Origin: an uncultured Planctomycetaceae bacterium
Lineage (GTDB): Bacteria > Planctomycetota > Planctomycetia > Planctomycetales > Planctomycetaceae
Direction of reading: 5' to 3'
Length of the DNA: 64,000 bases
Assembly: GCA_963813715.1 (NCBI GenBank)
Contig: CAWFAK010000005.1
Location: 384,001 to 448,000, forward strand
The position numbers were made by a program, and so were the translations under genes. This document shows positions 7,758-26,843 of this stretch, in pieces. How positions within the stretch are numbered: the first letter of the stretch is position 1; each line of letters opens with the position of its first letter. Below the pieces are notes generated by a model. It was not told the DNA's origin. It searched no databases and saw nothing but the letters and a program-made list of their open reading frames with translations.

Positions 7758-8740
7758 CTAGGTTGCCGCGCGGATCGGTTGCGGGAGGTTCGCCAGCCAT
7801 TGCAGCAGCAGGTCGGGCCACTTGGCCGGGGGAAATCCGTTCTTCACCCGCTGCGGGATCAGGTTGCCGACACCGTGGCCCCCTTCGCGGAACTCCTCCA
7901 TGTGCACCGGCACGCCGAGCTTTTCCAGGTCGGCCTTGATGGCCCGCGGCATCTCGATCGGCGCACCGCCGCTGATCCCATCGTTGGTGGCGTGAACGAG
8001 GAACACGGGAGGCGAGTCTTTCTGAAACTTGAAAGGGGACTGCTTCTGCCGCCAGTGCCACGTCGCCAGCCCGACAGCGAAGTCCGGGCGGCTGCTCAGC
8101 CGTTCAATTGGGTCGACGGCGTCCTTATCTCCGCCGTCGAAGTTGGCGGCCAGGTTCATCGCCAGGTTGTGCCCGCCGAGTAGCCGGCGATGCCGATCTT
8201 GTGCGGGTCGATGCGCCACTCTTTCGCCCGGTCTCGCACGACGCGCGTGGCCCGCTTCGCGTCGAGCAGCGTGATTTCCTGGATGCCCGCGTTGCTCACC
8301 CGATACGGAGGCCGCAAACGATACTTGAGGCCGATGACGGCGACGCCTTTCGGCACGAAGACATCGGCCGCGTAGACGACGTGCGTCTTCCAATCGAGCG
8401 CGCCGTAGCCGCCTCCCGCGCAAACAATCAGCGCCATTCCCGTCGCCTTCGCCGGCGGCGGTAGGTAAACGCTGATCGTCGGCACCGACACCATCTTGAT
8501 TGTGCCGCGCGGCTCGACGGTTTCGGGCGGGGCACCGTCCAGAAACTTGGGGGGCTTGCCCGGCCAGAGCGGCAGGACCAAGGGTGCCCCGCCGACAGTC
8601 CCTGGCGGCACGGAATTCTGGCGGGCCGATCGTCGGACGGACGGAACAGAGGTGTCTTGCGCCACCGCAAGGGCGCAACAAACGGCCAGCAGCAGACCGG
8701 TGGCAGACAAGAATCGAATCGCAGGTGAGAATCGAATCAC
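7758..8740 (-). CDS. Secreted alpha/beta hydrolase (esterase/xylanase-like), frameshift near 8175; start uncertain
   Basis: PLWPG, CAGGGY, LKYRL, IDPHKIGIAGYSAG | GHNLA...SSRPDFA...PPVFLVHATND...GGHG. Confidence 0.85.
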
Positions 8741-8764
8741 AGGCGAGAAGAATCGAATCGAGGC
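8710..8764. repeat. ~18-bp tandem repeat x3 in the hydrolase N-terminus
   Basis: AGAATCGAATCGCAGGTG AGAATCGAATCACAGGCG AGA-AGAATCGAATCGAGGC (encodes IRF(F)SP units). Confidence 0.8.
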
Positions 8765-8973
8765 CTGAGCGTGACAGATGCGACAGTGCAGAGCCGCTCA
8801 CTCCGTTTATGTCTGTTCGCGAAACGCTGGCAAAGGATGCGGACCGGGCTGGAAAATGTCGGCAGCGGGGGACTTGCCGGCGAGAAATCAGCGGGCTGGG
8901 AGCTTAGAGTCTTTGTATCCGCTGCGCACTTTGCCCAAGAAAACGGGATCTGTCAACGACGGAGTCCAGCCGC

Positions 8974-10104
8974 ATGAGGGCTCTCTCTAACCGCATCTGC
9001 CACAGACGAGAAAGAAACTTGCAGCTCCAGCATGAACGACCGCAAACCGCTTGCCTGCTGCACGGGAGGATCCGGACGAAAGTTTTTGTTTTCGCGACCG
9101 TGCTCATGGCGACGTTGCGACTGGCGCTGGGCCAGGCGACGGCTCAAGCCCAATGGCAGACGCAAGCGATCAACACGAGTGCGAACTTCCGCGGACTGTC
9201 GGCCGTGAGCGCCCGGGTGGCCTGGGTGAGCGGCACCGAGGGCACGTACGGCCGCACGACCGACGGCGGTCAGACGTGGTCGGTCGCCGTGGTGCCCGGT
9301 GCGGACAAGCTCGATTTTCGCGACGTCGAGGCCTTCGACGCGGCGACCGCGTACCTCTTGAGCGCCGGACCGGGAACCGACTCCCGAATCTATAAGACGA
9401 CCGATGCCGGCCGCACGTGGAATCGGCAATTTCAGAACTCCGATCGCCAGGCGTTCTTCGACGCCCTGGCATTCTGGGGCGAGCGGCATGGCCTGGCGAT
9501 CAGCGATCCGGTGAACGGTCGCTTTCCGCTCATCGTCACAGAGGACGCCGGCTCGCATTGGACCCCGCTTGCGGCCGTCGATCTGCCGCGGGCGCTGCCG
9601 AACGAAGGGGCCTTCGCGGCGAGCGGTACCTGCCTGGTCACGCACGGTCCGAGCGACGTGTGGTTCGGCACGGGCGGAGCCAAAGTGGCCCGCGTCTTTC
9701 ACTCGGCCGATCGGGGTCGACACTGGACGGTGAGCGAGACGCCCATTCCCGCCGGAGTCGCGTCGGCCGGCATCTTCTCGATCGCCTTTCGCGACCGCGA
9801 TCACGGCCTGATCGTCGGCGGCGACTACGCCAAACCGACTCAGCCGGGAGCGAACGCGGCCCGCACAGTTGACGGCGGTCGCACGTGGACGCCGCTAGGC
9901 CGACCGTTCGCTTATCGCTCGGGCGTCGCTTGGGCGAGAGACCGCTGGATCGCCGTTGGCACCTCCGGTTCCGACGTCTCCACTGACGATGGTGTTACGT
10001 GGAAACCCCTCGACCGACAGAACGACAATACGGTCAGCTTCGCGCCGGACGGCACAGGCTGGACCGCCGGTCCGCGCGGTCGGATTGCGAAGTTCGTTAA
10101 CTAG
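8974..10104 (+). CDS. BNR/Asp-box repeat beta-propeller (YCF48-like/glycosyl hydrolase); true start probably downstream
   Basis: Repeated T/S-x-D-x-G-x-T-W Asp boxes; FRGLSAVS, LDFRDVEAFD, EGAFAASGT. Confidence 0.85.
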   Translation: MRALSNRICHRRERNLQLQHERPQTACLLHGRIRTKVFVFATVLMATLRLALGQATAQAQWQTQAINTSANFRGLSAVSARVAWVSGTEGTYGRTTDGGQTWSVAVVPGADKLDFRDVEAFDAATAYLLSAGPGTDSRIYKTTDAGRTWNRQFQNSDRQAFFDALAFWGERHGLAISDPVNGRFPLIVTEDAGSHWTPLAAVDLPRALPNEGAFAASGTCLVTHGPSDVWFGTGGAKVARVFHSADRGRHWTVSETPIPAGVASAGIFSIAFRDRDHGLIVGGDYAKPTQPGANAARTVDGGRTWTPLGRPFAYRSGVAWARDRWIAVGTSGSDVSTDDGVTWKPLDRQNDNTVSFAPDGTGWTAGPRGRIAKFVN

Positions 10105-10200
10105 AGGTCAATCAGCGGAGGTTGTGCGGTCGCAGTCTCACGTCGTTCGGCTTGGTATCTTTGAGCGCGTCGAATTCCGGAACAGTGTCACACGATTCTT

Positions 10201-11028
10201 ATGCCACATACCATCCTCCTCGCCCACGGCGTTTTGGGATTTGGGGCCGACCTCAAGATCCGGTTGCCCGCGCAATACTTCAACGGCGTGGCCGGGCATC
10301 TCGAGGGGCAGGGGCACCGGGTGTTCGCGCCGAGCGTGGATCCGATCGGCAGCATTGCGAAGCGCGGCCGGCAACTGGCGGAGCGGATCCTCGAAGTGCC
10401 GCTGGAGCCGGGCGAGAAACTGCACGTGATCGCCTACAGCATGGGAGGGCTCGACGCGCGGCACGCGCTCTCGAACATCAGCGAGGAGGACATCTCGCAG
10501 CGGGTGGCCGATCGCGTGGCGACGCTGGTCACGGTGGGCACGCCGCACCGCGGCTCGCCGGTGGCCGACGCGATCGCCAATCCGAGCCTGCCCCTGTTCC
10601 AGAAAATCCCGCCCCTGTTACGGGAGGCGTTTCGCGACGCGGCGCCGGCGCTTCGCGACTTGACGACCGAGGCCGCCGAACGCTTCGATCGGGAGACGCC
10701 CGACGTGCCCGGCGTGCGCTACATCGAAGTGGCGGGCGACGCCTTTCAGGCGGGCAAAGGATTGTTTGTCTTCCAGCTGGCCGCGGCGATCGGCGGGATC
10801 AAAAGCGAAGTCAACGACGGCGTGGTCACGCGGGCCTCGGCTCTGCGCGACGTCGCCGGTCACGAGCACCTCGACGACTGGCCGGTCGACCACGCGGGTG
10901 CGATCGGCTGGAGCTTTCCGTCGCTGCTGCTCTTCAACGCCCGCCACTTCCCGATCAAGTTTCGCCTTCCCTGGCTGCCGCCGCCCACCCATCTGGAGCG
11001 GTATGACGAAATCGTCGCCCGGCTCTGA
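10201..11028 (+). CDS. Lipase/esterase family alpha/beta hydrolase
   Basis: LAHGVLGF oxyanion motif, AYSMGGLDAR nucleophile elbow, GTPHRGS, NDGVV, DH. Confidence 0.9.
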   Translation: MPHTILLAHGVLGFGADLKIRLPAQYFNGVAGHLEGQGHRVFAPSVDPIGSIAKRGRQLAERILEVPLEPGEKLHVIAYSMGGLDARHALSNISEEDISQRVADRVATLVTVGTPHRGSPVADAIANPSLPLFQKIPPLLREAFRDAAPALRDLTTEAAERFDRETPDVPGVRYIEVAGDAFQAGKGLFVFQLAAAIGGIKSEVNDGVVTRASALRDVAGHEHLDDWPVDHAGAIGWSFPSLLLFNARHFPIKFRLPWLPPPTHLERYDEIVARL

Positions 11029-11314: not shown

Positions 11315-11986
11315 ATGACCATGAAAACCAACGACGACACCGAATATCGCCTGCTGCAAGCGGCCGGCGAGCTGTTTGCGGAAAAAGGCTACGACGGCGT
11401 CAGCGTCCGCGAGATCTGCCAGCGGGCGGGCGCCGGCAACGTGGCGGCCGTCAACTATTACTTCCGCGACAAGGAGCGGCTCTACATCGAGGCGGTGAAA
11501 TCGGCCTGCTCGCGGGGGGACGAAAGCTTCCCTTATCCCGATTGGCCTGCCGGCACCGAGCCGCGGCAAAAACTGATCGACTTCATCCGCGTGCTCACGG
11601 ACCGCATGTTCGGCAACAGCCCGCCGTGGGCCCGCCGATTGTTCTTGCGCGAATTGTCCCATCCGACCGAGGCCTGCACCGAATTCGTGCAGAAGATCGT
11701 GCGGCCGAACGCCGAGCTGTTGGGCAGTATTCTCACCGAGCTATTGCCCAAGGTGCCGCAACGCAAGCGGAGCCTGATCGCGTTCAGCATCGTCGGTCAG
11801 TGCTTTTTCCATCGCTTTGCCCAGCCGATCGTCACCCAGCTCGTGGGCGAGGAAGAAGCCCGCAACTACGACACGGCGCTCTTGGCCGAACATATTGCCG
11901 ACTTCAGCCTGGCGGCGCTGGGCCTGGAACCGGGTAAGAAAAGCCGGCCGCCGCGATCGCGTTCGGCGTCGCGGACGCGGGAGTAA
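11315..11986 (+). CDS. TetR family regulator with CecR/YbiH-type (DUF1956) C-terminus
   Basis: LLQAAGELFAEKGYDGVSVREIC...NVAAVNYYFRDKERLY HTH; FSIVGQC; HIADFSLAAL. Confidence 0.9.
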   Translation: MTMKTNDDTEYRLLQAAGELFAEKGYDGVSVREICQRAGAGNVAAVNYYFRDKERLYIEAVKSACSRGDESFPYPDWPAGTEPRQKLIDFIRVLTDRMFGNSPPWARRLFLRELSHPTEACTEFVQKIVRPNAELLGSILTELLPKVPQRKRSLIAFSIVGQCFFHRFAQPIVTQLVGEEEARNYDTALLAEHIADFSLAALGLEPGKKSRPPRSRSASRTRE

Positions 11987-11990
11987 CGAC

Positions 11991-13133
11991 GTGACCTGGG
12001 TCGCGCTCAAGATGATGACCGGCAATCGCGGCAAGTATTTCGCGATCGTGTTCGGGATCGCCTTTGCCTGCATGCTGATGGGGCAGCAAGCGTCGATCTT
12101 CTGCGGACTGATGCGAAATACCACGAGCCAGATTCGCGACACGACCGGGGCCGACATCTGGGTGATGGACCCCAGCGTGGAATTCGTCGACGACGTCACG
12201 CCGCTGGCGGACAACGATTTGTTCCGCGTGCGGGGCGTGCCCGGCGTGAGCTGGGCGGTGCGGTTCTACAAAGGGCTGGCCCGGGCGCAGTTTTTGGAGG
12301 GGAACTTCAAGCAGTTCATCGTGCTGGGTCTCGACAACGAAAACTTCGTCGGCGCTCCGCAAGAAATGCTGTTGGGATCGCTCGAAGATCTGCGGCGGCC
12401 GGACGCCGTGATTCTCGACGAGTACGGCTATCACTACTTGTGGCCGGGCGAGCCGCTGCGGGCCGGACGCACATTCGAGATGAACGATCGCCGGGCGCAG
12501 GTGGTCGGCGTTTGCAAAACCTCGCCGACGTTCCAGACGTTCCCCGTCGTCTACACCCGCTATACCCAAGCGCTGCAGTATGCACCGCAGGAACGCCGAG
12601 TGCTGTCGTTCGTGTTGGCCAAGGCCAAACCCGGCGTGCCCGTCGCGGATGTCTGCGAGAGCATCCAGGAGCAGACCGGCTTGATGGCCCTCTCGCAGCC
12701 GACCTTTAGCTGGATGACGGTCTCTTATTACATGCGGCGGACGGGCATTCCGGTGAACTTCGCGACGACCGTGCTTCTGGGGTTCATTATCGGTGCGGCG
12801 GTCGCCGGTCAGACCTTTTATCTCTTCACGATCGGCAACCTGAAGCAATTCGGCGCGCTCAAGGCGATGGGCGTGAGCAACGTCCGCATTTTTGGAATGG
12901 TGCTCGTGCAAGGCGCGTTCGTGGGCGTGATTGGCTACGGGATCGGCATGGGAATGGCCGCCCTCGTTGAGACGGTGATGTCACTGACGATCACCACGAT
13001 TCCCCCCGTGTTCTATATGCTCTGGCAGATTCCGGCAGGGACCGCGATTGCGGTCGCGCTGATTATGATCGCAACCACGTTCGTCAGTTTGCATCGCGTG
13101 TGGGTGCTCGAACCCGCGGCGGTCTTTCGTTAG
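11991..13133 (+). CDS. ABC transporter permease (MacB/FtsX-like) 1
   Basis: GTG start MTWVALKMM; ADIWVMD periplasmic domain; QFGALKAMG; EPAAVFR end. Confidence 0.9.
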   Translation: MTWVALKMMTGNRGKYFAIVFGIAFACMLMGQQASIFCGLMRNTTSQIRDTTGADIWVMDPSVEFVDDVTPLADNDLFRVRGVPGVSWAVRFYKGLARAQFLEGNFKQFIVLGLDNENFVGAPQEMLLGSLEDLRRPDAVILDEYGYHYLWPGEPLRAGRTFEMNDRRAQVVGVCKTSPTFQTFPVVYTRYTQALQYAPQERRVLSFVLAKAKPGVPVADVCESIQEQTGLMALSQPTFSWMTVSYYMRRTGIPVNFATTVLLGFIIGAAVAGQTFYLFTIGNLKQFGALKAMGVSNVRIFGMVLVQGAFVGVIGYGIGMGMAALVETVMSLTITTIPPVFYMLWQIPAGTAIAVALIMIATTFVSLHRVWVLEPAAVFR

Positions 13134-13145
13134 GCCGAGACGACT

Positions 13146-14280
13146 ATGCCCTGGCTGGCTTTAAAGATGTTGTTGGGCGATCGGGCCAAGTATCTGGCCA
13201 TCGTCGCCGGCATTGCCTTTTCCGCGCTGCTCATTGCGCAGCAGTCGGCGATTTTCTGCGGCTTGATGCGGCGGCACGGTGGGCCAGCTGCGCGACGTCA
13301 CGGACGCCGACATTTGGGTGATGGATCCGTCCGTCGAATACCTCGACGAGCTGAAACCGATGAAGGAGAACCACGTCTACCAGGTGCAGGGAGTGCCCGG
13401 AGTGGCCTGGGCCGTCCGCTTCTGCAAGGGGCAGGCCCGCATGAAGCTCTTCGACGGCAAGTATCAACAGGCGATCGTGCTCGGACTGGACGACGCCACC
13501 TTCGTCGGCGCACCGCAAAACATGCTGCTGGGCTCGCTCGCCGGGCTCAAGCTGCCCGACGCCGTGATCATGGACGAGATTGGGTACCGCTACCTGTGGC
13601 CGGGAAAGCCGCTCCAGATCGGCGGCACGTTTGAAATGAACGATCACCGGGCCGTGATCGTCGGAATCTGCAAGGCGAATCGGACGTTTCAAACGTTCCC
13701 GATTCTTTACACGCGCTACAACCTGGCGCTGCAGTACGTGCCGCAGGAGCGGCGCGTGCTCCCCTTCGTGCTGGTGAAGGGCCAACCCGGATTGACCACG
13801 ACGGAAGTTTGTGAGCGGATCACACAGCAGACGGGGCTCGAGGCGCTGCCCCGCGAGGAATTCGGCTGGAGAACCGTCGGCTATTACATGAAGCGGACGG
13901 GCATCCCCATCAACTTTGGACTCACCGTGGTGTTGGGGTTCGTCGTTGGCTGCGCAATCGCGGGCCAGACCTTCTACACCTTTGTCCTGGAAAACATGAA
14001 CCAGTTTGGGGCGTTGAAAGCCATGGGCGTCAGCAACCTGAAGCTCGTCGGCATGGTGCTTTTTCAGGCCCTGGTCGTGGCGACGTTGGGGTACGGCTTG
14101 GGAATCGGACTAGCGGCCTTGTTCGGTGTGCTCACGCAAAACACCGAGGTCTCCTTCTTCCTTCCGTGGCAGGTGCTGGGCCTGACGGCCGTCGCGACCG
14201 CGCTGATTGCCGTCTTGGCCAGCGTGATCAGCATCCGGCCTGTGCTGTATCTCGAACCGGCGGTCGTGTTTCGAGGCTGA
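13146..14280 (+). CDS. ABC transporter permease (MacB/FtsX-like) 2, frameshift near 13275
   Basis: Paralog of the upstream permease: MPWLALKML... | GQLRDVTDADIWVMD...QFGALKAMG...EPAVVFRG. Confidence 0.88.
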
Positions 14281-14303
14281 TACGCCTTACTTGAGAGCGG
14301 ACG

Positions 14304-15134
14304 ATGATCTGGCGCAACGCGACAAAACGAGAAACCGACGATTCCGGCACGGTCGGACTGCTGAACGGCCCGACGACCGCCGTCGTCTGTCGCCAGGTGA
14401 CCAAGGAATTCGGCGACGGCGATTCCCGGGTCTTCGCGCTGCGTGGCATCGACCTGGAAGTTTACGGCGGCGAGCTGACGCTGTTGGTCGGTCCGTCGGG
14501 CTGCGGCAAAACGACGCTGATCTCGATCATCGCCGGCCTGCTCGATCCGACGGCCGGCTCGCTGGAAGTGTTGGGGGAAGACCTGAGCCGGATGCGCGGC
14601 GGACAGCTCGTCGATTTTCGCGGCGCCAACGTCGGCTTTGTGTTTCAGCAGTACAACTTGCTCCCCGCGTTGACGGCGGCTGAGAATGCGGCCGTGCCGC
14701 TGATCATTGCCGGCCGTCCCCGCCGGGAAGCCATCGCCAAGGCCCGGGACATTTTGGCGGCGCTCGAGATGAGTGACCGGGCCGACGCCCTGCCTTCGAC
14801 GTTGTCGGGCGGCCAGCAGCAACGGGTGGCGATTGCCCGGGCCCTCGTCCACGAGCCGCGCCTGCTGGTGTGCGACGAGCCGACGGCCGCGCTCGACGCG
14901 CGTTCCGGCCGCACCGTGCTCGACCTGGTGAAGCGCGTGGCCGTGCAGCCGGATCGGGCCGTGATCGTCGTCACCCATGACAATCGAATTTTCGACTTCG
15001 GCGACCGGATCGTCACCATGAACGACGGCCGCATCGAAAGCGTGACAGACCAGAAAAACGCAGGCGGGCCGAAATCCGTCCCGCACAGCGCGTTGGAACC
15101 GCGCGCTTGGCCTTTTGAATCAGGTGAAGCATGA
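14304..15134 (+). CDS. ABC transporter ATP-binding protein (LolD/MacB-like)
   Basis: GPSGCGKT Walker A, LSGGQQQR, CDEPT, VTHD. Confidence 0.95.
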   Translation: MIWRNATKRETDDSGTVGLLNGPTTAVVCRQVTKEFGDGDSRVFALRGIDLEVYGGELTLLVGPSGCGKTTLISIIAGLLDPTAGSLEVLGEDLSRMRGGQLVDFRGANVGFVFQQYNLLPALTAAENAAVPLIIAGRPRREAIAKARDILAALEMSDRADALPSTLSGGQQQRVAIARALVHEPRLLVCDEPTAALDARSGRTVLDLVKRVAVQPDRAVIVVTHDNRIFDFGDRIVTMNDGRIESVTDQKNAGGPKSVPHSALEPRAWPFESGEA

Positions 15135-16057
15135 AAATCAGAATGGGGAAGTTCTTCCTGCCGTTCCTGGCCGCGGGCATGCTGGGCTTTGCGATCTATC
15201 ACGTGGCGATGGCGCAAAAGACGTACACCAAGGCGCCGCCGCCGATCGAACCGCCGACCACTCCGTTCGGCCACACGGTCGCCGGATCGGGCATCGTCGA
15301 GCCGAACAACGAAGCTAGCACGACTTCGGCCATCGCCGTCGGTTCGCAGATTTCGGGGGTGGTCACTCACGTTCACGTGCGAATCAATCAGAACGTGAAG
15401 TTGGGCGACCTGTTGTTTGAGCTGGATAAACGGGCCGCGCTCGCCGACCTGCACGTTCGCGAAGCGCAAGTCGGCGTCGCCGACTCCAACGTCCGCCTGC
15501 AGAAGGACCAGTTGGACCGAGGCGCCAAGCTACTGCCGCGGCAGGCGATCACCGAGCAGGACTACGTCACGCGCGTCGAGAACTACCGTTCGGCGCTGGC
15601 GTCGTTGGAGCTGGCCAAGGTGCAGGTGGAGCAAGGGAAGACGGCCGTCGATCTGCTCGAGATTCGCGCCCCCGTGGACGGCACGATCCTGCAGATTAAC
15701 ATCCGCCCCGGCGAATTCGTGTCGATCTCGGGCAATCAATCGATGATCCAGATGGGCAACATGCAGCCGCTGCACGTCCGCGTCGACGTCGACGAAGAAG
15801 ACCTGCCGCGACTGAAGCTCAACGCGCCGGCCACTGCCAAGATTCGCGGCGACGCCCTCCAGCAGGAGGTGCCGCTGCACTTCGTGCGGCTCGAGCCATT
15901 CGCCATGCCCAAGGTTTCGCTCACCGGAGCTAACACGGAACGAGTCGACACGCGGGTGGTGCAGGTGATCTACGCGATCGAGCCGAACAACAAGCTTGTC
16001 GCCGAGAGGAAGATCCTGGTCGGCCAACTCTTGGACGTGTTCATCGACAGCAAGTGA
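15131..16057 (+). CDS. Efflux membrane fusion protein (HlyD family)
   Basis: N-terminal TM; lipoyl halves (ISGVVTHVHV, IRAPVDGTIL); ERVDTRVVQVIY; ATGA overlap. Confidence 0.9.
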   Translation: MKIRMGKFFLPFLAAGMLGFAIYHVAMAQKTYTKAPPPIEPPTTPFGHTVAGSGIVEPNNEASTTSAIAVGSQISGVVTHVHVRINQNVKLGDLLFELDKRAALADLHVREAQVGVADSNVRLQKDQLDRGAKLLPRQAITEQDYVTRVENYRSALASLELAKVQVEQGKTAVDLLEIRAPVDGTILQINIRPGEFVSISGNQSMIQMGNMQPLHVRVDVDEEDLPRLKLNAPATAKIRGDALQQEVPLHFVRLEPFAMPKVSLTGANTERVDTRVVQVIYAIEPNNKLVAERKILVGQLLDVFIDSK

Positions 16058-16101
16058 CCGGGTCGCCTGAGCGCTGCCGGTGTCATCTTGACTTGTGGGT
16101 T

Positions 16102-16144
16102 GCACGGCGTGGTTCCGCCATCTCGGGCCACGCCGTGCTTTATT
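16102..16144 (+). terminator. Rho-independent terminator of the ABC operon
   Basis: GCACGGCGTGG / CCACGCCGTGC 11-bp stem followed by TTTATT. Confidence 0.65.
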
Positions 16145-16366
16145 AATGCCCGGTAATTCGCCGCAACCTCTGATGGCGAATGCACGAATGCGATTCTTGC
16201 GGAGCGCAACGAGCGGCTGCTGATGCCGCGCGGCGGCCCGCCGGTTCGATCTTGTCGCGCCTCTCGATTTCGCCTACCTTCCCGCCTCTATTCTGCGGGC
16301 CGACTGCCGATTCCCATCTCTGGGTTTTCCCTTCCTCCCGTCTGAGTTCGCTGGAGGCCCCAACCC

Positions 16367-16969
16367 ATGCGTGGCGATTCGCCCTTCGTCCGACAATCGA
16401 TCCGCTTTGTTCGTCAGTCCAAACGGCCGTTGGCGCTGGTGCTTGTCGCCGCGTTTTCGATTCACGCGGTCTCGTGTGGGACGATCATTCACCCCGAGCG
16501 GTGGGGTCAGCCGCGAACCGGCCCGCTCGATCCATCGATCGTCATTCTCGACGGCTTGGGCGTGTTGTTGTTCGTGATTCCGGGCGTGGTGGCGTTCGTC
16601 GTCGATTTTTCGACCGGTGCCATCTATCTGCCCGGGCCGTCTGCCTACTATCCGGCGCCGCCGGGAGGTTATCCGCCTCCGCCGTCCTATCCGCCGCCCG
16701 GCGCTTACCCGCCGCCTGGCGCCTATCCGGCCGGCGGAAATTATGCAGCGCCCGGCACCTCGTCGGCCTATCCGCCTCCGCCACCGACGGGCGTTCCCAT
16801 GACGCGGATCGACGTCGATCCCACGCAGCTCAACAAGGACAAGATCCAAGCGGTAATCCGTGCCCAAACCGGACGCGACGTCAACCTCGATGATCCGGAC
16901 GTGGCGGTGCAACCCGTGCCCAACGTGGACGACGCGTCGCGTTTGCTGAACGCTGCCCGCCAGCCCTGA
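16367..16969 (+). CDS. Lipoprotein-like membrane protein with Tyr-Pro-rich repeats
   Basis: AVSCGTIIHPER..GQ...DPSIVILDGLGVLLFVIPGVVAFVVDFSTGAIYLP then YPPP(P/G) repeats. Confidence 0.75.
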   Translation: MRGDSPFVRQSIRFVRQSKRPLALVLVAAFSIHAVSCGTIIHPERWGQPRTGPLDPSIVILDGLGVLLFVIPGVVAFVVDFSTGAIYLPGPSAYYPAPPGGYPPPPSYPPPGAYPPPGAYPAGGNYAAPGTSSAYPPPPPTGVPMTRIDVDPTQLNKDKIQAVIRAQTGRDVNLDDPDVAVQPVPNVDDASRLLNAARQP

Positions 16970-17144
16970 CCATCAGGTGAAGGGCCCGCGCCCCCTCGAG
17001 CCGGACGAATCTGGCACGAGCCTCCTGCGGGGGCTACGATAAAGTTCCGGCGTCACTGGGCTGGAGCCTTGCGGACCCGCGGATTTTCGCGTCGGTTCCG
17101 AAGTTGCCGCGGCTCGCCCGGCGCCCTGCTACGACACGTTCGTC

Positions 17145-20100
17145 ATGCACTACGTTCCCGACTCGGCCCGCGACTTTCTGCCCGACGGTGCGGCACAGCG
17201 AACGGGATCGGGACTGCCCGGCGGCCGACTTTCCGCCACCAGCTTTCACTACCAGTCCGCACCGGTCTATTTCCTGACACTGATCGTCGGGGCCCTGCTC
17301 GCCGCCGATTTGGTGATCGGCCTGTTTGCCGACCCCGCGTGGTCAGTTTACCGAGCGCCGTTCGGTTTTCGGCTGGCCCTCTTGGCGGCGGTGCTTGGCG
17401 GCGGGCGGATCCTCTATCAGACGCTCGACGGGCTCTTCGAGGGGCGAGTCGGAGCGGAGCTGGCCCTGACGATCGCCGCTTTGGCGGCCATCATGCTTGG
17501 CGAATATATGACGGCCGCGCTCGTGGTCTTCATCGCGCTCTGCGGCGAAAGCGTCGAGGGCTATACGCTCGATCGCGCCCAGTCGGCCATTCGTCGCGTC
17601 TTCGATCTTTGCCCCGCGGTGGCGCATGTCGTCCGCGGCGGGCGCGAGGTGGACGTTCCCGTCGGCGAAGTCGGCGCGGGCGAAACCGTGACCATCCGTC
17701 CCGGGGAGCGCGTGCCCGTCGACGGCACCGTCTCGTCCGGCGTCTCGACCGTCGACCAAAGTGCGCTCACCGGGGAGAGCTTGCCCGCCGACAAACAAGC
17801 CGGAGCGGAAGTCTTCACCGGCACGCTCAATCAATACGGATCGCTGAGCGTAGTCGCCAAGAAAGTTGGGCCCGACACCACGCTGGCGCAAGTCGTCGAA
17901 CTGGTCGCTCAGGCCACGCAGCAGAAGACGCCCCTGGAGCGGACGGCCGATCGGCTGGCCCGTGTCTTCTTGCCCTTCGTGCTGGGCGCGGCAGTGCTGA
18001 CGTTGATTGGCTGGTGGTGGAGCACGGGCGAGTGGCGCGCGGGCTTTCGGCCGGCGCTTGCCGTGCTGGTCGTCGCCTGCCCGTGTCCGCTGATTCTGGC
18101 GACACCCACGGCCGTCATCGCCGCTATGGCGTGGCTGGCGCGCAAAGGCGTCGTCGTGAAGGGCTCGGCCGCGCTCGAGAGCCTGGCCAGTGTCGACACC
18201 ATCGCTTTCGACAAAACGGGGACGCTCACCCGCGGCGAACTCGCGCTCGGCGCGATCGTGGCCTTGCCGCCCTTGTCCGAGACCGAGTTGCTCCGCGTGG
18301 CGGCCATCGCCGAGCGGCGCAGCGAGCACCTCCTGGCGCGCTTGATTGTCCGCGAAGCCGAAGCCCGCAATCTCGTGGTGCCGGGGATCGAAGAGTTCAC
18401 GCTGCATCCTGGCGCCGGCGTGGTGGCCCGCGTCCGCGCGACGCTCTTGGGCCCGTGGGTCGACGAGACGAGCGGCCTGTGTGCGGTGATCGTCGGCAAT
18501 CGCCGGTTGCTCGAAGCGCAACAGGTCGTTGTCGATGCGGCCTTCGAGGCGCAGCTCACCCAAATCGAAGAGAGCGGCGCCACCACGATGCTGGTCGCGG
18601 TCGACGGCCGGCTGCTCGGAGCGATCGGCGTCCGCGATGCGCTCCGCGACGAAAGTCGGTCCGTGATCGCCGAGCTGAAACGCTCCGGTGTGAAATCGTT
18701 CGCCCTGCTCACCGGCGATCGCCCGCAAGCGGCCCGCACCGTGGCCGACGCATTGGGCGTTTTCGACGAGGTCCAGTCCGGCCTGTTTCCCGCCGACAAG
18801 GCCCGCTGGATCGACGAGCAACAGCGACGGGGCCGACGGGTGGCCATGGTGGGCGACGGAATCAACGACGCGCCGGCCCTCGCTGCGGCCGACGTCGGTA
18901 TCGCGCTGGGGGGCGTCGGCAGCGACATCGCGGCCGAGGCCGGCTCGCTGGTGCTGATGGGCGATCCGCTGCGGCCGCTGCCCGGACTGTTGCGACTGTC
19001 CCACGCGCTCGTTCGCAACATTCGCCAGAGCATTTTGATCTTTGCCTTCGGCATGAACGCGGTCGGCATGCTGCTTTCCTCGTTCGGCCTGCTGAGCCCG
19101 GTGCTCGCCGCCGTGTTCCACGAAGCGGCCTCGCTCGCCGTGATGGTCAATGCGACGCGGCTCTTGGGCTTCGAGCGGCTGCAATCATCGACGGCGGCCG
19201 GAGTATGGGAGCAGTTTTCGCGGGGCGCGGAATGGCTCACGCAAGCGCTTTCGCCCAGCCGCTGGATTTTTCGGCTGATCGAGAACCGCGCCGTCGTGCT
19301 GGGCGTCCTCGTGCCGGCGATTGTCTTTGTCTGGCTGTTGTCCGGCATCGTTTGCATCCGCGATAACGAGCGGGCCTTCGTCACCCGCTTCGGCCGGGCC
19401 GAGGCCGATCTGCCCGCGGGAGTCCATTGGCGGCTGCCTGTTCCGTTCGAGCGAATCTATCGCGAGCCGGCCGACAAGCTGCGCACCGTGCAGATCGGCT
19501 TTCGTGGATCCGACGCGCGACCGGCGTCCGACCCTGCCGTGGTCGGCGAACCGATCGAATGGACCAGCGAGCATAACGAAGCGGGTTTCGAGGGGCGTCC
19601 CGACGAGTCGCTCGTGCTGACCGGGGACGAAGTGCTCGTCGAAATGACGGCCGAAGTCCAGTGGCGAATCGCCGACATGCGGCAATACGCGTTCGGATCG
19701 GTTCGCCCTGCCGAGACTCTCCGGACCGTGGCCGAAAGCGTCCTCCGCGGGATGGCCAGCCGGCAAACGCTCGACGGAATTCTCACGGAGCGGCGGCAAG
19801 CGATCGAGGACGATTGCCTGGCGCGGCTCCGCGGTCGCATCAAGCCGCTGGGCCTGGGAATCGAAGTCACCGAGCTGACGCTGCTCGACGTTCACCCGCC
19901 GCGGCCCGCCGTTTCGGCCTATCGCGACGTGGCCGACGCGCTCGAAGAAAAGGAAGAACGCATCAACGAGGCGGAGGCCTATTACGCCGGTCGGCTGTTG
20001 CGCGCGGCCGGCGAACGGGCCGTGCTGATGTTAAGCGATGCGGCTGCTGATTCGAGACAGCGGTTCGATAAAACGACGGCCGGCGGCGTCTCCGGCTGGA

Positions 20101-20600
20101 CGCTGACGGACGCTCTCTGGTCAAAGCTCAATCCCGAGTCGCCGACGACGGAGCTCGTCCTTTCGGGCGAAGCGGCCACCGTCCTGTTGGGTGCGCGAGC
20201 GCAGGCGACGCAAACCACGCAAGCCGCCGGCGGACAGGCCGATCGCTTCAAAGAACTGCTGGGCGCATATCGGTCTCAGCCAGAGCTGACTGGCCGACAC
20301 CTCTATTGGCAGGCGGTCATCGATTCGCTCTCCGGGCGGGCAGTGACGATCATCGACCCCAAGGCGGGCGGCCACAAACGGCTCCTGCTCGGCAGCCCCG
20401 ACGACTTGCGGAACGGCGGCCTGCTCCGCGAGATCGGCTCCGAAGCCCCGTCGACCTCCACGAATCCCACGGACGTGGCAAGCCCAACCGGTGCCCCGAA
20501 CACAACCCCAACTGAGCCGTCGCCAAACGTCCCGTCGGACCGGCCGGCCGAATCCGATCCGTCCAACCGCGGAAGTTCAAACAACGAGTCCAATCGCTGA
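17145..20600 (+). CDS. P1B-type heavy-metal ATPase fused to a C-terminal SPFH/HflK-like domain
   Basis: LTGES, ACPCP, DKTGT, SEHLLA, TGD, GDGIND, HEAAS; then TM + ERAFVTRFGR..GVHWRLPVPFE..LTGDE..LGIEV..LLDVHPP..AYRDV..INEAEAY. Confidence 0.92.
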   Translation: MHYVPDSARDFLPDGAAQRTGSGLPGGRLSATSFHYQSAPVYFLTLIVGALLAADLVIGLFADPAWSVYRAPFGFRLALLAAVLGGGRILYQTLDGLFEGRVGAELALTIAALAAIMLGEYMTAALVVFIALCGESVEGYTLDRAQSAIRRVFDLCPAVAHVVRGGREVDVPVGEVGAGETVTIRPGERVPVDGTVSSGVSTVDQSALTGESLPADKQAGAEVFTGTLNQYGSLSVVAKKVGPDTTLAQVVELVAQATQQKTPLERTADRLARVFLPFVLGAAVLTLIGWWWSTGEWRAGFRPALAVLVVACPCPLILATPTAVIAAMAWLARKGVVVKGSAALESLASVDTIAFDKTGTLTRGELALGAIVALPPLSETELLRVAAIAERRSEHLLARLIVREAEARNLVVPGIEEFTLHPGAGVVARVRATLLGPWVDETSGLCAVIVGNRRLLEAQQVVVDAAFEAQLTQIEESGATTMLVAVDGRLLGAIGVRDALRDESRSVIAELKRSGVKSFALLTGDRPQAARTVADALGVFDEVQSGLFPADKARWIDEQQRRGRRVAMVGDGINDAPALAAADVGIALGGVGSDIAAEAGSLVLMGDPLRPLPGLLRLSHALVRNIRQSILIFAFGMNAVGMLLSSFGLLSPVLAAVFHEAASLAVMVNATRLLGFERLQSSTAAGVWEQFSRGAEWLTQALSPSRWIFRLIENRAVVLGVLVPAIVFVWLLSGIVCIRDNERAFVTRFGRAEADLPAGVHWRLPVPFERIYREPADKLRTVQIGFRGSDARPASDPAVVGEPIEWTSEHNEAGFEGRPDESLVLTGDEVLVEMTAEVQWRIADMRQYAFGSVRPAETLRTVAESVLRGMASRQTLDGILTERRQAIEDDCLARLRGRIKPLGLGIEVTELTLLDVHPPRPAVSAYRDVADALEEKEERINEAEAYYAGRLLRAAGERAVLMLSDAAADSRQRFDKTTAGGVSGWTLTDALWSKLNPESPTTELVLSGEAATVLLGARAQATQTTQAAGGQADRFKELLGAYRSQPELTGRHLYWQAVIDSLSGRAVTIIDPKAGGHKRLLLGSPDDLRNGGLLREIGSEAPSTSTNPTDVASPTGAPNTTPTEPSPNVPSDRPAESDPSNRGSSNNESNR

Positions 20601-20623
20601 ACCTCAGCGCTGAAGTCGAAACC

Positions 20624-21829
20624 ATGATCGATCGTAGTTCGGATCAGTTCGCTCGTACCCCGCCCGACGGACTGAGTCCACCGCCCGACGGCCGCTTCGC
20701 GCGACGCCTCGGGCTCTTTGCGCTGGCGCTCTCCTCGTCGGACTTGCGGCGACCTGCGTGATCTTTGTCGACGAGCGGGAGGCGGTGATCGTCGAGCGGT
20801 TTGGCAGCATTGTGCGAGTTTACGATCGCGAGGCCGACCGTGGAGCCCACTTCAAGCTTCCCTGGCCCATCGATCTGGCCCGCCGCTTCGATCGCCGCGT
20901 GCAGTTGTTCACGCCGTCGGCCCGCGAGATGTTTACGAGCGATAAGAAGAACGTCACGGTCGACGTCTACATCTGCTGGCGAATCGCCCAGCCGCCGGAA
21001 GGTGCCGCCGACGCACCGGGCGAACGGCCCGTGGTGCGCTTCTATCGCGGGCTGGGCAGCAGCGACGTGGCCGAGGCCCGTCTGGAAAGCCGCGTCCGCT
21101 CGATCCTGACGACGGCGCTCGGCCAGGTCGAGCTGAGCCATCTGCTCGGTGTGAAGAATTCCGAGCAGGGCCCGGCGAAGAACGAGACCGGGCCGCTCGA
21201 TCGCCTGTCCGAAACCGTCCGCGACGAAACGCTCAAGCGGGGGAGCGAGTCCGAGTCGCTCCGTGATCGGCTCGGTATCGAAGTCGTCGATCTGCGGATC
21301 ACGCGGCTCAATTTGCCGCAGGGCAACCAGCAGGCCGTCTTCGATCGAATGAAGAGCGAGCGGAAGAAAATTGCCGACCGGTATCGCTCGGCGGGACTGG
21401 CGGAAAACCAGATGCTTCGCAGCCAGGCCGACCGGCAATACAACGAGCTTTTGGCGAAGACTCGGGCCGACGCTGAGCGGATTCGCGGCGTCGCCGAAGC
21501 CGAGGCTGTCCGCGTGCTGAACGCGGCCCACGGGCAGGATCCCGAATTCTACGCCGTGCTCGCGGCGCTCGATGCGTACCGCAAGATTCTCAATGACCGC
21601 ACGACCCTGGTGCTTTCCGCGTCGAGCAGCATGCTCAAGCTGCTGACCGACGGGATCCCCGAGCTGAAGAGCCGGCCCGAGCCGGTGCCTCGCACCACCG
21701 CGCGGCCGCCACTGTCGCCAAACGGCAAATCGCCGACCGGCAAGACGGCGCTCACCCCCAAAAGCGCCGCCCGGCAGCCCCAGCCGCCGGCGTCCGGCCA
21801 TTTCGGGCATGTCGGGAGGGGGCCGATGA
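20624..21829 (+). CDS. hflC: HflC-like SPFH protein (N-terminal frameshift near 20730; end probably at the TGA overlapping the next ATG)
   Basis: VDEREAVIVERFG, HFKLPWP, FDRRVQ, TSDKKNVTVD, GIEVVDLRITRLNLP, RMKSER, RGVAEAEA, DPEFY. Confidence 0.85.
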
Positions 21830-22916
21830 AGCGCATTGCGCTCGGCGGCGCGCTGCTCGTGGCCGTCTATCTGGCGACTGGCTTTTATGTCGTGCGCGGG
21901 AACGAAAAGGCGGCCGTCCGTCATTTCGGCCGTTTCATCCGGACGCCGGAGAATCGCGTCGCCCTGGAAGGGAGCGGTCTGCACTACACACTGCCGTGGC
22001 CCTGTTCGGACATCGAGCGGATCAACCTCAACGAAGTGCGGACGCTGTCGATCGGCATGGGCGAAGTCGCCGAGCCGGGGGCCGGCGGTTTTCTGCGTTC
22101 GCTCGAGGCGGAGAACCGCTCGCAGTTTCTGACGGGCGACAAAAACATCCTGCATCTGCAGATCAACGCTCAGTATCGCGTGGCCGACCCGACGGTCGAA
22201 GACTTTCTGTCCCGCTCGGCGGCGCCGGAACGCCACCTCGAGCGAATCGTGGAGGCGGTGGCGGCCGGGCTGATCGCGCAGAGCGGAGTCGATTTCGTGC
22301 ACCCGCTCGGCCAGGTCGAGCTGAACGCGTTGTTGACGGCCGGCGTGCGTCGCCTTGCCGAAGAGCAGCGACTGGGTGTGGAAATCGACGACGTGGCGAT
22401 CAATGCCGTCTATCCGCCGATCCTGGTGAAATCGTACTTTCTCGACGTGACGAGCGCTCGGGCCGATAAGATCAATTCCATCAACGAGGGATTGGCCTAC
22501 GCCGAGGCCCGCCATTCCGCCGCGCAGGCCGAAGCCCGCAGCACGCTCGACGAAGCGGCCAGCTACCGTCAGCAGACGGTCGAATCGGCGCGGGCCGAAG
22601 CGGAGAGTTTTTCGCGACTGATCGAACAGTTGCGACACGAGGAACAGTCGGGAGCGGGCGGACGCACTTACGTGCAAGCCCGGCAGATGGCCCTCACCCG
22701 CCGTTATTACGACACGATGCGCGACGTGTTGAAAACGGTCGCGACGAAAGTCCTGCTCAATTCGGGCGAACCGGCCGACCTGACGATCTTCACTCCCACA
22801 GGTCGGCCTCCCGCCGCAGCTCCTTCCGCTGGGCAAGCGCCGACACCCCGGCGCCCGCCGCGACCCGGCGCCCTGCCGCCGGCGGATCGGAAACGCCCCC
22901 GGCCTGGTTGCGCTAG
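21826..22916 (+). CDS. hflK: HflK-like SPFH protein (3' end uncertain)
   Basis: GGGAGG RBS + ATG; YLATGFYVV..EKAAVRHFG, GLHYTLPWP, LTGDKNI, YPP..V..YF.DV..ARAD...INEG.AY, RRYYDTM. Confidence 0.85.
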
Positions 22917-22997
22917 CGGGTCAAAACTTGACTCATTCCGCGCGAATCGGGCGACATTTTGTGTCGCACCCGCTCAAAATTGCCGATTTTTGAGATT

Positions 22998-24350
22998 ATG
23001 CGGGCTTATCGGCTGTGCGCGGCGATATCGCGGGCCTGGAGCCGCTCGTCAGCGCAACTGCGTTCGCGTGTTACGACACTGGCCCTCTTGGCCAGCCTGT
23101 GCGTACCGCCCGCGGTGCTGGCCGACTCGGGCTCGACCGCGGCCACAACCGCAACTCCAACTGCCGCCGTCGCGCCCGACTCACGCCCGCGGTCGTCCTT
23201 CGCGTACTACGGCATTCTCGGCGAGGTGGCCCGTCCGGGCGTCTATCAGCTCTCGACCGGCTGCACGTTGGGTCAGCTAGTCATTGGTGCCGGCGGCCTC
23301 ACAGGCAACGCGAATGGCAACGCGCGGGTCCTGCGTGGGCGCGGCAGGCTGAACAATTCTTTGTGGCCGCCTCTGAGTCCGCGGTCTTGTCCCCCGGCGA
23401 CTTGATCGTTGTGGGCGTACAGGCATCGCGGTTGGCCGAGCCCAACGGTGCCCGCGCCGGCCGTGGACCATCGCAAGTGCAAATTGGCCTGTTGAACCTG
23501 ATCAGCCGTCCGGTCGTGCTCACGTTGCCTCGCGAGCTCGCGGCGCCCGCGCGGATCGTCGAGTTCCTCGGTCAACCGCCCGCATTGGCGGACGACCTCG
23601 GGATCGTCGGCCCGTCGCGAGCGGAGGTCCGCGCCTCCTTCAGCGCGAACTTTGCGGATGACCGGCTGGCGTCGGGCGCGGTCCTGATTTTTCCTTCGCA
23701 CCGCGTCCGTGTGGCATCGCTGCCCACGCTGCCCGATCCGATTCCACTCCCCGCCCAGCCGCAGTTCCTGGCAGCACCGTCGACTCCGGCGGCGCCAGCG
23801 ACGGAAACGGCTCGCGGCGCGGATGCGCCGTGGACGTCGGTCGCAGCCGCGCCTTATCAGGCGGGCCGCGTTGCCGGCTTTTACCGCGCGCGGTGCCGTG
23901 TGCCGAATCGCTCCGGCGCCGCCGGCCAACGTGGACGCCCCGTCCCCTCAGCAGCTCGAGCGGATGATCTTCGGCTCACTCCCGCGGAACGTCTCGCGAC
24001 AAGAGTGGGACCGCGAAGAGCAACTCAGCGCCGAACGTGCTCGATCGCGTCCCTACATCTTTTTCTTTGTGATCGCCGGAACGGCCACCTTGGCGATCGC
24101 GTTCACGATCGGCTCGATGGGCCTGCGGGGGTTGCGCAGCATTCGCTCGCGTCGGCGGGCGACTGTGGCCGGGCTGGTGCCGCCCGTGCCGACGTTTGCC
24201 GAGCTCACGCCGGGGAATCGCATCCTCCGCGTCGATGTCAACCAACCGCAAACGCGACTGGCGCTCGACCTGGCGGTTTTCGAGCAGGCGCAGGCCCGCC
24301 GTGCGCAGAGAGCGATGAGCCTCCCGGACCACACGCCGAAGGCCGCCTGA
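22998..24350 (+). CDS. Secreted/membrane-anchored protein with N-terminal SLBB-like domain (two apparent frameshifts)
   Basis: Signal peptide, YYGILGEVARPGVYQL...AGGLT (SLBB); later frames give LSPGDLIVV, a Pro-rich linker and a TM. Confidence 0.6.
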
Positions 24351-25015: not shown

Positions 25016-26843
25016 ATGCACGAACACTTCGATCTGATCCTCACGCTGAGCGGCGCGTTCACCGCCGCGCTCATCCTGGGCTACGCCACGCATCGCCTCG
25101 GCCTGTCGCCGATTGTGGGCTATCTGCTCGCCGGCATCGCCGTAGGCCCGAACACGCCCGGCTTCGTCGCAGACACGAAATTGGCGAACGAACTGTCCGA
25201 AGTCGGCGTGATCCTGCTGATGTTCGGCGTCGGCCTCCACTTTCACTTAAAGGACCTGCTCGCCGTGCGACGGATTGCCGTGCCGGGGGCGCTGGGCCAA
25301 ATCGGCGTGACGAGTCTCGTCGCGGGCGCGGTGGAGATGGCGTTCGGCGGAACAGCGTGGGCGGGGATTGTGTTCGGGTTGGCGCTGTCCGTGGCGAGCA
25401 CGGTGGTCCTCTTGCGCGTATTGGCCGACGCGCACGACTTACACACGCCGGTCGGGCACATCGCCGTCGGCTGGCTGGTAGTCGAGGACCTGGTGACCGT
25501 GCTGGTGCTCGTCATGTTGCCCGTCTTGTTTCGGGCGGAGTCGCAGGGAGTGGGACGCATCGCGCTGTCGCTCGGCGCTTCGGTGCTCAAAATCGGACTG
25601 CTGGTCGCGGTGATGCTGTATGGCGGTCGTCGGCTGGTCCCCTGGCTGCTCGCGCAGATGGCGGCCACTCGCTCGCGCGAGTTGTTCACGCTGACCGTCC
25701 TCGTGCTGGCGCTCGGGATCGCGGTGGCGTCCGCCAAACTGTTCGGGGCTTCGATGGCGCTCGGCGCGTTTCTCGCCGGCATGGTCGTCGGGCAGTCCGA
25801 CTTCAGCCTGCGGGCGGCGGCGGAAGCGTTGCCGCTGCGCGATGCGTTCGCCGTGCTGTTCTTCGTCTCGATCGGAATGCTCTTTCAGCCCGGCTATTTC
25901 CTGGTGGCGCCGGGGTTCGTATTGGCGACTCTGGGATTGGTGTCTGGTGCTCAAGCCACTCGTGGCGCTGGTGATCGTGCTGGCGCTGGGCTATCCGTTG
26001 CGGTGCGGGCTGGCGGTCGGCGTCGCGCTCGGGCAGATCGGCGAGTTTTCGTTCATCCTGGCCGAGGTCGGGCGCGAGCTGGGCATTCTGGACGACCACG
26101 CGACCAACACGTTCGTCGTCGCGGCCATCGTTTCGATCAGCGTCAATCCGATCCTCTATCGCCTGGTCGACAAAATCGAGGATCGGGCCAAGCGACGGCC
26201 GGGCCTTTCGAGATGGCTGATCGATCGGCGGAGCGTTGGCGCGAGCCAGCCCGCGACCGGTGCGGCGGTCGCTTCGGACGATTCGTCCCCGAGCGCCACG
26301 GTCTATCACGCCGTCGTCGTCGGCTACGGGCCCGTCGGCCGGACGGTGGTGCCGCTGCTTCGCGAGAACTCGGTCGAGCCGACGATCATCGAACTGAACC
26401 TGGAGACGGTCCGGCAGCTCCGCGCCGCGGGGATCGCGGCCGTCTACGGAGACGCCACGCGGCCCGAGTCGTTGAAAGAGGCTGGTATCGAACGCGCCAT
26501 CGTGCTCGTGCTCAGTGCCACCAACCTGCACGGAGGCCCGGAGATCATCCGCCTGGCCCGCGAACTGAACCCCGCCGTCCGGGTCTTCGCCCGCACGAAT
26601 TATCTGCGGGAGATGCCCGGCCTCAAAAAGGCAGGAGCGGATGTGACCTTTGCCGACGAGGGAGAAGTCGCCCTCTCGATGATCGAACTCCTGCTGCGGC
26701 AACTGGGCGCGACGGCCGAGCAAATCGATCGCGAACGCGACCGCATCCGCAACGAGCTGTTCGGCGGCCCGCTCTCTGCCGAACCGCTGCTGCCGGCCAA
26801 ACCGCCTGACGAATCGGCGAGTGCGGACACGCCGCAAGCGTGA
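25016..26843 (+). CDS. ybaL: CPA2 cation:proton antiporter with TrkA-N domain (YbaL-like), frameshift near 25945
   Basis: PIVGYLLAGI, GPNTPGFVAD, GVILLMFGVGLHF, ASTVV, VEDL, PLRDAFAVLFFVSIGM, QIGEFSF, VGYGPVG, YGDA. Confidence 0.9.

Follow-up and report, generated by a model that had tools for sequence, protein, structure and literature searches.

The stretch analysed here (the window) comprises 64,000 nucleotides of DNA from an uncultured Planctomycetaceae bacterium of soil (assembly GCA_963813715.1, contig CAWFAK010000005.1, positions 384,001 to 448,000). It carries a gene in which a metal-pumping P1B-type ATPase is joined to an HflK-like SPFH part (K'). An HflC-like gene (C) and a second HflK-like gene (K'') follow. 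The fusion and the three-gene module are real and conserved. Judged by its sequence, the pump retains all catalytic motifs, and C is a member of the HflC family by its score against a curated model. We consider it fairly probable that the pump belongs, as a tethered subunit, to a hetero-oligomer of the HflK/HflC type, with K' and K'' sharing the K positions; the assembly, its stoichiometry, the metal, and the benefit are what we infer. On the periplasmic side, C and K-type subunits would take turns around a ring or cage like that of HflK/HflC, and K' would compete with K'' for the K positions. Each assembly would bear one or more pumps on a linker of about 50 residues, forming a scaffolded metal-transport platform. 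The benefit of such a scaffold could be clustering or stabilisation, control of turnover, or periplasmic metal handling.

The fusion protein and its partner genes

The fusion gene is a stop-free frame of 1151 codons (17145-20600, + strand). The initial annotation described it as one uninterrupted open reading frame, and this is borne out in the relatives. At all ten relatives' loci that were fetched, the ATPase and SPFH matches share one frame, and the open frames there span 1039-1166 codons. Searching database proteins of 633-2015 residues with residues 690-1060 gave 236 matches, 120 of which were listed. The combination of E1-E2_ATPase, Hydrolase, and Band_7 is present in 111 of the 120, which confirms the domain architecture. 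Eight of the others are shorter and have Hydrolase and Band_7, and the last (P0105) ends at residue 827, past the junction. One homologue (P0076) comes from an isolate, Symmachiella dynata. As a separate observation, P0105 (827 residues) is about 80% identical to the product of 17145-19625 over residues 1-655 and shows a single difference over residues 656-827. This pattern suggests strain recombination or a chimeric contig.

Contigs of three DNA runs and of one RNA-library run read through the junction between the two parts (19170-19330) with no letter gained or lost. These contigs are X1 record 1 (19000-19501), X2 records 17 and 18, X11 record 9, and X3 record 25, the last of which spans all of 19000-23000. 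The four runs belong to four separate soil or rhizosphere studies. Contigs of the RNA library (X11) cover 27 of the 30 bins of 19000-23000, which is no proof of transcription. That the long frame arose by mis-assembly or from two genes joined through a frameshift, a concern raised by single-base errors a few hundred bases downstream and by an assembly of 18 contigs with 82.6% completeness, can be regarded as excluded by the gap-free contigs of four runs over 19000-19501, by the frame retained at 10 of 10 relatives' loci, and by hundreds of full-length homologues, one of them from an isolate genome.

Those errors lie in the downstream SPFH genes. The alignment of the window with its relative G002 contains 506 mismatches in 6382 aligned bases and three single-base insertions or deletions (indels). 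The HflC-like copy of the window is short of a G behind 20724, within the transmembrane (TM) helix, and contains one base too many near 21793. In the HflK-like copy, a base is missing behind about 22839. All four runs read an additional G behind 20724, as does G002. At 21793/21796, both runs with cover have one base fewer, and behind 22839/22842, both runs with cover have one base more, again as in G002. Because the runs side with G002, the three indels of the window are most likely assembly errors. As written, the ATG at 20624 of the HflC-like gene is out of frame with the gene body, and a single 840-codon frame (20758-23280) contains two Band_7 stretches. In G002 and G003, there are two intact genes that overlap in ATGA (406 and 362 codons in G002). 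Thus, the separate hflC- and hflK-like genes of the initial annotation are real and separate in the relatives, and their outer ends, 20624 and 22916, are right; it is the letters of the window that merge the frames through the three indels. From their overlap, the HflC-like and second HflK-like genes are predicted to be translationally coupled. Start/stop overlaps between module genes occur in loci L013, L014, L021, and L022.

In the fusion protein, Pfam places E1-E2_ATPase at residues 156-334 (1.1e-53), Hydrolase at 350-583 (3.9e-30), and Band_7 at 738-945 (1.5e-20). The NCBIfam heavy-metal P1B model TIGR01525 scores 550.8 bits (cut-off 346). The fused C-terminal part scores 150.2 bits against the hflK model TIGR01933, below the cut-off of 159.4. 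Residues 822-949 match E. coli HflK (7vhp_E) in a PDB sequence search with an E value of 6.8e-28. The protein structure was modelled with AlphaFold2 from 38 family members (mean predicted local distance difference test score, pLDDT, 73.8; predicted TM-score, pTM, 0.56). The model opens with a P1B pump core (eight membrane helices plus A, P, and N domains) and continues with linker helices, a ninth TM helix, the SPFH domain, long helices, and a tail. Within the HflK-like part, the SPFH domain (735-917) has a disordered insert (788-829) with a conserved PIEWTSEH motif, followed by long helices at 920-969 and 1008-1063 and C-terminal strands at 1067-1082. S703 and P704 of the linker are invariant among the 38 aligned fusion proteins, as are W806, H810, E821, and E829 of the periplasmic insert. 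The length of the disordered C-terminal tail varies across the family.

The chain of P-type pumps ends in the cytoplasm. The pump helices of the model are even in number and one more, the ninth, follows, so that the SPFH part should be periplasmic, on the same side as HflK and HflC. The feature set of HflK, namely a single TM helix with its N-terminus inside, a periplasmic SPFH domain, a coiled coil, and C-terminal strands, is found in the model, with the topology derived from helix parity.

The N-terminus of the pump part is also conserved, with MHYVP and FHYQSAP motifs. Residues 1-12 (17145-17180) contain a nearly invariant M-H-Y-(V/C/I)-P-E-S; seven of the 38 members have MHYCPESC with two Cys, and distant family members retain the M-H start. 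The M-H-Y motif may be metal-binding or regulatory.

Table 1. Positions of the module genes, their parts, and the other features discussed (window coordinates unless a locus is named)
Feature	Position	Strand	Remarks
Fusion gene	17145..20600	+	1151 aa; P1B ATPase, linker, extra TM helix, HflK-like SPFH/coiled-coil part, disordered tail
P1B ATPase part (residues 1-682)	17145..19190	+	helices MA, MB, M1-M6; A, P, N domains; AlphaFold2 model, Foldseek, PDB matches
M4 metal-site motif C312-P313-C314	18078..18086	+	invariant in 38/38 aligned fusion proteins
Phosphorylation motif D356-K-T-G-T360	18210..18224	+	invariant in 38/38
M5 N638 and M6 H659-E660-A-A-S663, putative metal ligands	19056..19133	+	N638, H659, E660, S663 invariant in 38/38
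Linker helices (residues 683-713, two helices, conserved LSPSR) and ninth TM helix (residues 715-732)	19191..19340	+	predicted from the model
HflK-like part (K')	19347..20390	+	Band_7, hflK model, E. coli HflK match, AlphaFold2 model
Disordered Pro/Ser/Thr/Asn-rich tail (residues 1098-1151)	20436..20597	+	pLDDT <50
HflC-like gene (C)	20624..21829	+	406 aa in G002; frames, G002 alignment, TIGR01932, runs
HflK-like gene (K'')	21826..22916	+	362 aa in G002; start overlaps HflC-like stop (ATGA); true stop TAG 22914-22916
MacB-type tripartite ABC exporter operon	11817-16057	+	upstream of the module
Paralogous FtsX/MacB_PCD permeases	11817-13133, 13279-14280	+	
ABC ATPase	14304-15134	+	
HlyD-type adaptor	15131-16057	+	
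Genes with His-rich tails	L017:6121-7380, 7398-10811; L018:5490-6911; L021:7165-10422		
G030/G023 SPFH-transporter cassette	L026 (G030:C61:1-10500), L027 (G023:C1:6757000-6768000)		

The metal site of the pump

The pump has the features of a P1B-type ATPase, namely the DKTGT motif, the A, P, and N domains, a Cys-Pro-Cys (CPC) motif in M4, and, in the model, an eight-helix core. It was compared with the solved P1B pumps sCoaT (7qbz), CopA (3rfu/4bbj), and ZntA (4umv/4umw). The target-normalised Foldseek TM-scores of the pump part are 0.82 for CopA 4bbj, 0.89 for ZntA 4umw, and 0.82 for sCoaT 7qbz, and PDB sequence matches (E values of 1e-94 to 1e-98) score similarly for sCoaT, CopA, and ZntA. 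Residues 50-677 are colinear with residues 48-675 of the P1B-4 pump sCoaT (7qbz). No HMA domain was found in the fusion protein in a Pfam scan.

P1B subgroups are distinguished by their intramembrane ligands. P1B-1 pumps have Tyr-Asn in M5 and Met-x-x-Ser-Ser in M6, P1B-2 pumps have Lys in M5 and Asp-x-Gly in M6, and P1B-4 pumps have H-E-G-x-T in M6. The M6 HEAAS of the window pump aligns with HEGST of sCoaT 7qbz and with MALSS of CopA 3rfu. The pump departs from the P1B-1 (Cu+/Ag+) pattern by Met-Asn in M5 and by His-Glu-Ala-Ala-Ser in place of the Met-Ala-Leu-Ser-Ser of CopA. Hence, relative to CopA, the Asn in M5 is kept, Met stands for Tyr, and the Met and Ser-Ser of M6 are missing. The score against TIGR01511 is 396.4 bits, with a cut-off of 397. 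The P1B-2 (Zn2+/Cd2+/Pb2+) pattern does not apply either; CPC is present, but H-E-A-A-S occupies the aligned M6 position, and the ZntA equivalog models score far under their cut-offs (341 against 1240 bits and 385 against 1005). As for P1B-4 (Co2+/Zn2+/Cd2+/Fe2+), the M6 H-E-x-x-S/T motif and the missing HMA domain are common to the window pump and sCoaT. However, M6 matches the P1B-4 motif only in His, Glu, and the hydroxyl residue, and M4 has CPC where sCoaT has SPC; in excerpts of a review, CPC is the M4 motif of P1B-1 and SPC that of P1B-4 (PMC13460109).

The combination of ligand motifs therefore appears to fit none of the subgroup motif sets. Because of the Cys-Pro-Cys in M4, the Asn in M5, and the His-Glu-x-x-Ser in M6, the pump probably transports a divalent transition metal with a preference for thiol and imidazole ligands (Zn2+, Co2+, Cd2+, or a neighbouring metal) and not Cu+.

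Some distant relatives have His-rich cytoplasmic N-terminal tails, on the pump (L017, L021) and on the HflC-like partner (L017, L018). The tail on the HflC-like partner hints that the scaffold itself touches metal. It can be compared with a mycobacterial system. According to excerpts of PMC13460109, the P1B pumps (Ctp) of M. tuberculosis need PacL proteins, small scaffolds of the membrane, with which they are clustered in dynamic membrane "effluxosomes", and one PacL scaffold has a metal-binding tail. PacL belongs to another family (DUF6110, as assigned in the excerpted review), is not fused, and binds the cytoplasmic metal-binding domain of the pump, so that its likeness to the window module is one of principle only.

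SPFH subunits, FtsH, and other exporter fusions

The initial annotation counted three SPFH subunits, and the scores agree, with two of them K-like and one C-like by NCBIfam scores and pairwise comparison. The HflC-like protein passes TIGR01932 (cut-off 134.4) with 163.3 bits for the G002 copy and 163.5 bits for the window's own DNA (C5:404749-405645). Against TIGR01933 (cut-off 159.4), the G002 copy of the third gene reaches 126.3 bits; nothing else in the genome matches hflK better than the fused part and the third gene. K' and K'' are 28% identical (E 1e-18), whereas K' and C are barely alignable (E 0.02). By sequence comparison, the layout of the module is K'-C-K'', in which the fused SPFH part is paralogous to the third gene. 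A maximum-likelihood tree of 60 SPFH rows (quick search, with support from the Shimodaira-Hasegawa-like approximate likelihood ratio test, SH-aLRT, only) has a C-type clade (100) and a K'' clade (98). A further clade of 19 (97) unites the ATPase-fused parts with two parts from G030 and G023 that are fused to a membrane domain of no known family. Given their identity and their separate clades in the tree, K' and K'' are classed as old paralogues that travel together.

Modelling of the multimer had been proposed in the initial annotation. When residues 30-355 of the HflC-like protein were modelled with residues 700-1095 of the K' protein, the two were placed side by side. Each of the three runs scored 0.64, and the best of three controls scored 0.01. 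Of 157 solved complexes, 116 attain the score of the pair, as do 2 of 215 mismatched pairs. At least 95% of the contacts are common to the runs, and the pLDDT of the partner is 73. The two chains are predicted to touch along their SPFH domains, both long helices, and the C-terminal strands. The module shares the N-in TM helix, the periplasmic SPFH domain, the long helices, and the C-terminal strands with the E. coli HflK/HflC-FtsH complex (7vhp, 7wi3, 9cz1/2, 9paw), from which it also differs in several respects. E. coli has two subunit types, whereas the window module has three. E. coli HflK carries no pump, whereas K' has an entire eight-helix metal pump at its N-terminus. Finally, E. coli HflK/HflC works with FtsH, whereas no link of the window module to FtsH is seen in gene order or co-occurrence.

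The last difference bears on an alternative in which the three SPFH proteins form an ordinary cage around FtsH. The fusion would then keep the pump by the protease, and regulated proteolysis or quality control would set the level of the pump without an effect on transport. FtsH is the only partner with which HflK/HflC have an established role (E. coli 7vhp, 7wi3). No FtsH gene lies on the contig of the window, in agreement with the initial annotation. This carries little weight because hflKC is not adjacent to ftsH in E. coli and because the genome has three FtsH genes elsewhere (Peptidase_M41 matches on contigs C12, C2, and C9). A search with NCBIfam models found no other strong hflK or hflC match in the window's genome; an SPFH pair on contig C7 was considered as a second HflK/HflC pair and rejected, as it matched no NCBIfam family. 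In addition, the plain-pair proteins of G015 (both) and G022 (the K-type one) fall inside the C and K'' clades of the module.

The distribution of the genes argues in the other direction. Among 31 related genomes, 20 carry the fusion gene: as one open match in 14, with one stop inside the match in three (in one of which, G009, the open reading frame is intact), and in pieces in three (G004, G005, G011). An HflC match adjoins the fusion gene in 17 of the 20 carriers, the exceptions being G022, G027, and G029, and the genes that flank the three-gene module vary between loci. FtsH is found in 30 of the 31 relatives and HflC in 24. The seven relatives without an HflC match (completeness 86-99%) have FtsH and all lack the fusion. 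Since every HflC-less genome lacks the fusion while FtsH is nearly universal, HflC follows the transporter modules, not FtsH, among these relatives. At the loci seen, no FtsH gene adjoins a fusion gene, the nearest being about 27 kb away in G003. Three unrelated exporter families are found fused to SPFH parts, which points to metal export as the theme they have in common, although a shared need to control turnover could also explain this. On balance, we regard control through FtsH as unlikely.

The fusion gene is patchy within Planctomycetota, as a strong match to residues 601-1000 is found in only 4 of 401 genomes, its own included (E <=1e-45, with four candidates scored per genome). In the ESM Atlas, three clusters of 64-81 members have the ATPase and Band_7, most commonly from Planctomycetota, Verrucomicrobiota, and Acidobacteriota, which is a lead only. 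None of the at least 5000 best-scoring plasmid records of PLSDB covers 80% of the fusion protein.

The other exporter fusions came from an exhaustive profile-free search with the K' part. It gave 5864 cluster representatives at E <=0.001 and 174 at 1e-30, of which 45 of middle length were picked. They comprise 25 ATPase fusions or fragments (eight of them identified only from reading the N-terminus), 13 proteins with Cation_efflux (CDF) and Band_7, two with ArsP_1 and Band_7, and five plain HflK proteins. In the tree, the parts fused to CDF or ArsP_1 cluster with canonical HflK (90, not starred). Because they stand elsewhere than the ATPase fusions, exporter-SPFH fusions are judged from the sequences to have arisen at least twice independently. 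In G030 and G023, an SPFH trio is flanked by an ArsP_1 permease on one side and by a cysteine-less P1B-like ATPase on the other. The ArsP_1 permease comes first, then a protein of 599 or 609 residues (a membrane part of about 290 residues of no known family, plus Band_7), then the HflC-like and the HflK-like gene, and last the P1B-like ATPase of 646 residues without the CPC motif. In G030, the cassette is followed by a NicO/DsbD_2-like gene. At L018 (G024:C49), a Peptidase_S49/NfeD1b-like gene (2931-3962, - strand) follows the SPFH genes; NfeD-type proteins are described in excerpts of PMC2636767 as classic partners of other SPFH families.

The tethered arrangement could go further. K', C, and K'' could build a closed HflK/HflC-like vault over the periplasmic mouth of the pump, such that metal enters or leaves a protein-walled nanocompartment instead of the open periplasm. 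At least two, and possibly three, transporter families (P1B ATPase, CDF, ArsP_1) would have acquired this architecture independently of one another. We hold a closed vault to be improbable. If true, it would give SPFH cages a role that is independent of FtsH.

Known systems, surroundings, and meaning of the module

A literature search found no paper on a P1B ATPase-SPFH fusion, in line with the initial annotation, which knew of no functional characterisation. The available excerpts of published work on HflK/HflC in Planctomycetes (PMC2636767) mention no ATPase fusion. The architecture is not without a published analogue, however, as an unfused locus of P. aeruginosa had been missed (PMC4542158, PMC8531726). 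By analogy, it would be the closest one. There, PA2437, PA2438, and PA2439 of the HflC/HflK family lie with the P1B ATPase HmtA (PA2435) (PMC4542158, excerpts). Thus, three SPFH genes stand beside an unfused pump, whereas the window pump is fused; the two loci were compared by description only. The excerpted accounts of the locus do not discuss a role for the PA2437-PA2439 SPFH genes.

This locus is the basis for another alternative, in which the pump, under zinc or copper limitation, imports metal or exports it to load periplasmic proteins, as proposed for HmtA, and the SPFH assembly captures metal or hands it over. Control by zinc shortage through Zur is established for the P. aeruginosa locus. 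In excerpts of the respective reports, the transcripts of PA2437-PA2439 rise 9- to 14-fold and that of PA2435 (hmtA) 5.6-fold upon zinc depletion (PMC4542158, Table 2), the PA2437-PA2439 proteins are more abundant in zinc-depleted cells (PMC11761036), and Zur binds the PA2439 promoter (PMC8531726). The invariant His and Glu residues in the periplasmic insert of K' would suit the capture of metal. Nevertheless, homology to the Pseudomonas locus is putative, and the other fused partners, CDF and ArsP_1, are exporters. Import by a P1B pump is itself disputed: HmtA was claimed as a Cu and Zn importer, and the excerpted text of a later review states that "further analyses are needed" (PMC10393844). 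In addition, inspection by eye of the aligned upstream DNA of five genus-level relatives found no AT-rich palindrome of the Zur type, with the reservation that the motif of a planctomycete Zur may differ. We therefore consider a supply of metal in shortage quite unlikely.

Several points count against the pump as a tethered subunit of an HflK/HflC-type efflux platform. The metal is assigned from motifs. The window pump has no His-rich tail, and none of the 38 close members has at least five His in the N-terminal tail. Both K-like parts fall below the NCBIfam hflK cut-off. The complex score may reflect only the likeness to HflK/HflC, since complexes of these proteins have already been solved, and is to that extent weak as evidence for binding; a single pair model is also silent on a ring, its size, and whether the pump is inside or outside. 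The fusion genes of G022 and G027 are not followed by hflC or hflK, and in G029 the hflC and hflK genes are on other contigs. The genome contains no other HflK/HflC-type genes, so the SPFH proteins of the module may also serve FtsH. Finally, in the excerpts consulted, published data on a comparable set of genes exist only for PA2435-PA2439 (PMC4542158, PMC8531726, PMC11761036, PMC10393844); by analogy, induction by zinc shortage and a pump claimed to be an importer would fit a detoxifying efflux platform poorly. The tethered-subunit reading, control through FtsH, and metal supply are not fully exclusive.

A conserved CTGGCACG box lies at 17011-17018, about 130 bases upstream of the fusion start, in four genus-level relatives. 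We take it to resemble the -24 element of sigma-54 promoters; the downstream spacing fits poorly. No hits were obtained when the window was scanned for Rfam families and tRNAs. The DNA at 16058-17144 is conserved in G002, G003, and G009. An open reading frame therein (16180-16893) was considered as a module gene and rejected, as its translation is Arg-rich nonsense with no Pfam match. The MacB-type operon upstream adjoins the module only in the window and G002. Downstream lies a Kef-type gene (25016-26809), whose frame in the window turns into Arg/Gly-rich nonsense after about 300 codons. Its G003 ortholog has 605 residues with Na_H_Exchanger and TrkA_N, and the window copy is probably frameshifted by an assembly error.

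SPFH proteins such as HflK/C, stomatins, prohibitins, and flotillins are found in all domains of life, and the effect of their rings and cages on the proteins they hold is still an open question. In the module described here, the client is covalently attached, leaving no doubt which protein the scaffold serves, and it has a readily assayed activity, namely metal-stimulated ATP hydrolysis and transport. Together with the CDF and ArsP_1 fusions and the Zur-controlled pump beside three SPFH genes in P. aeruginosa, this suggests an overlooked tie between SPFH scaffolds in general and transition-metal transport.

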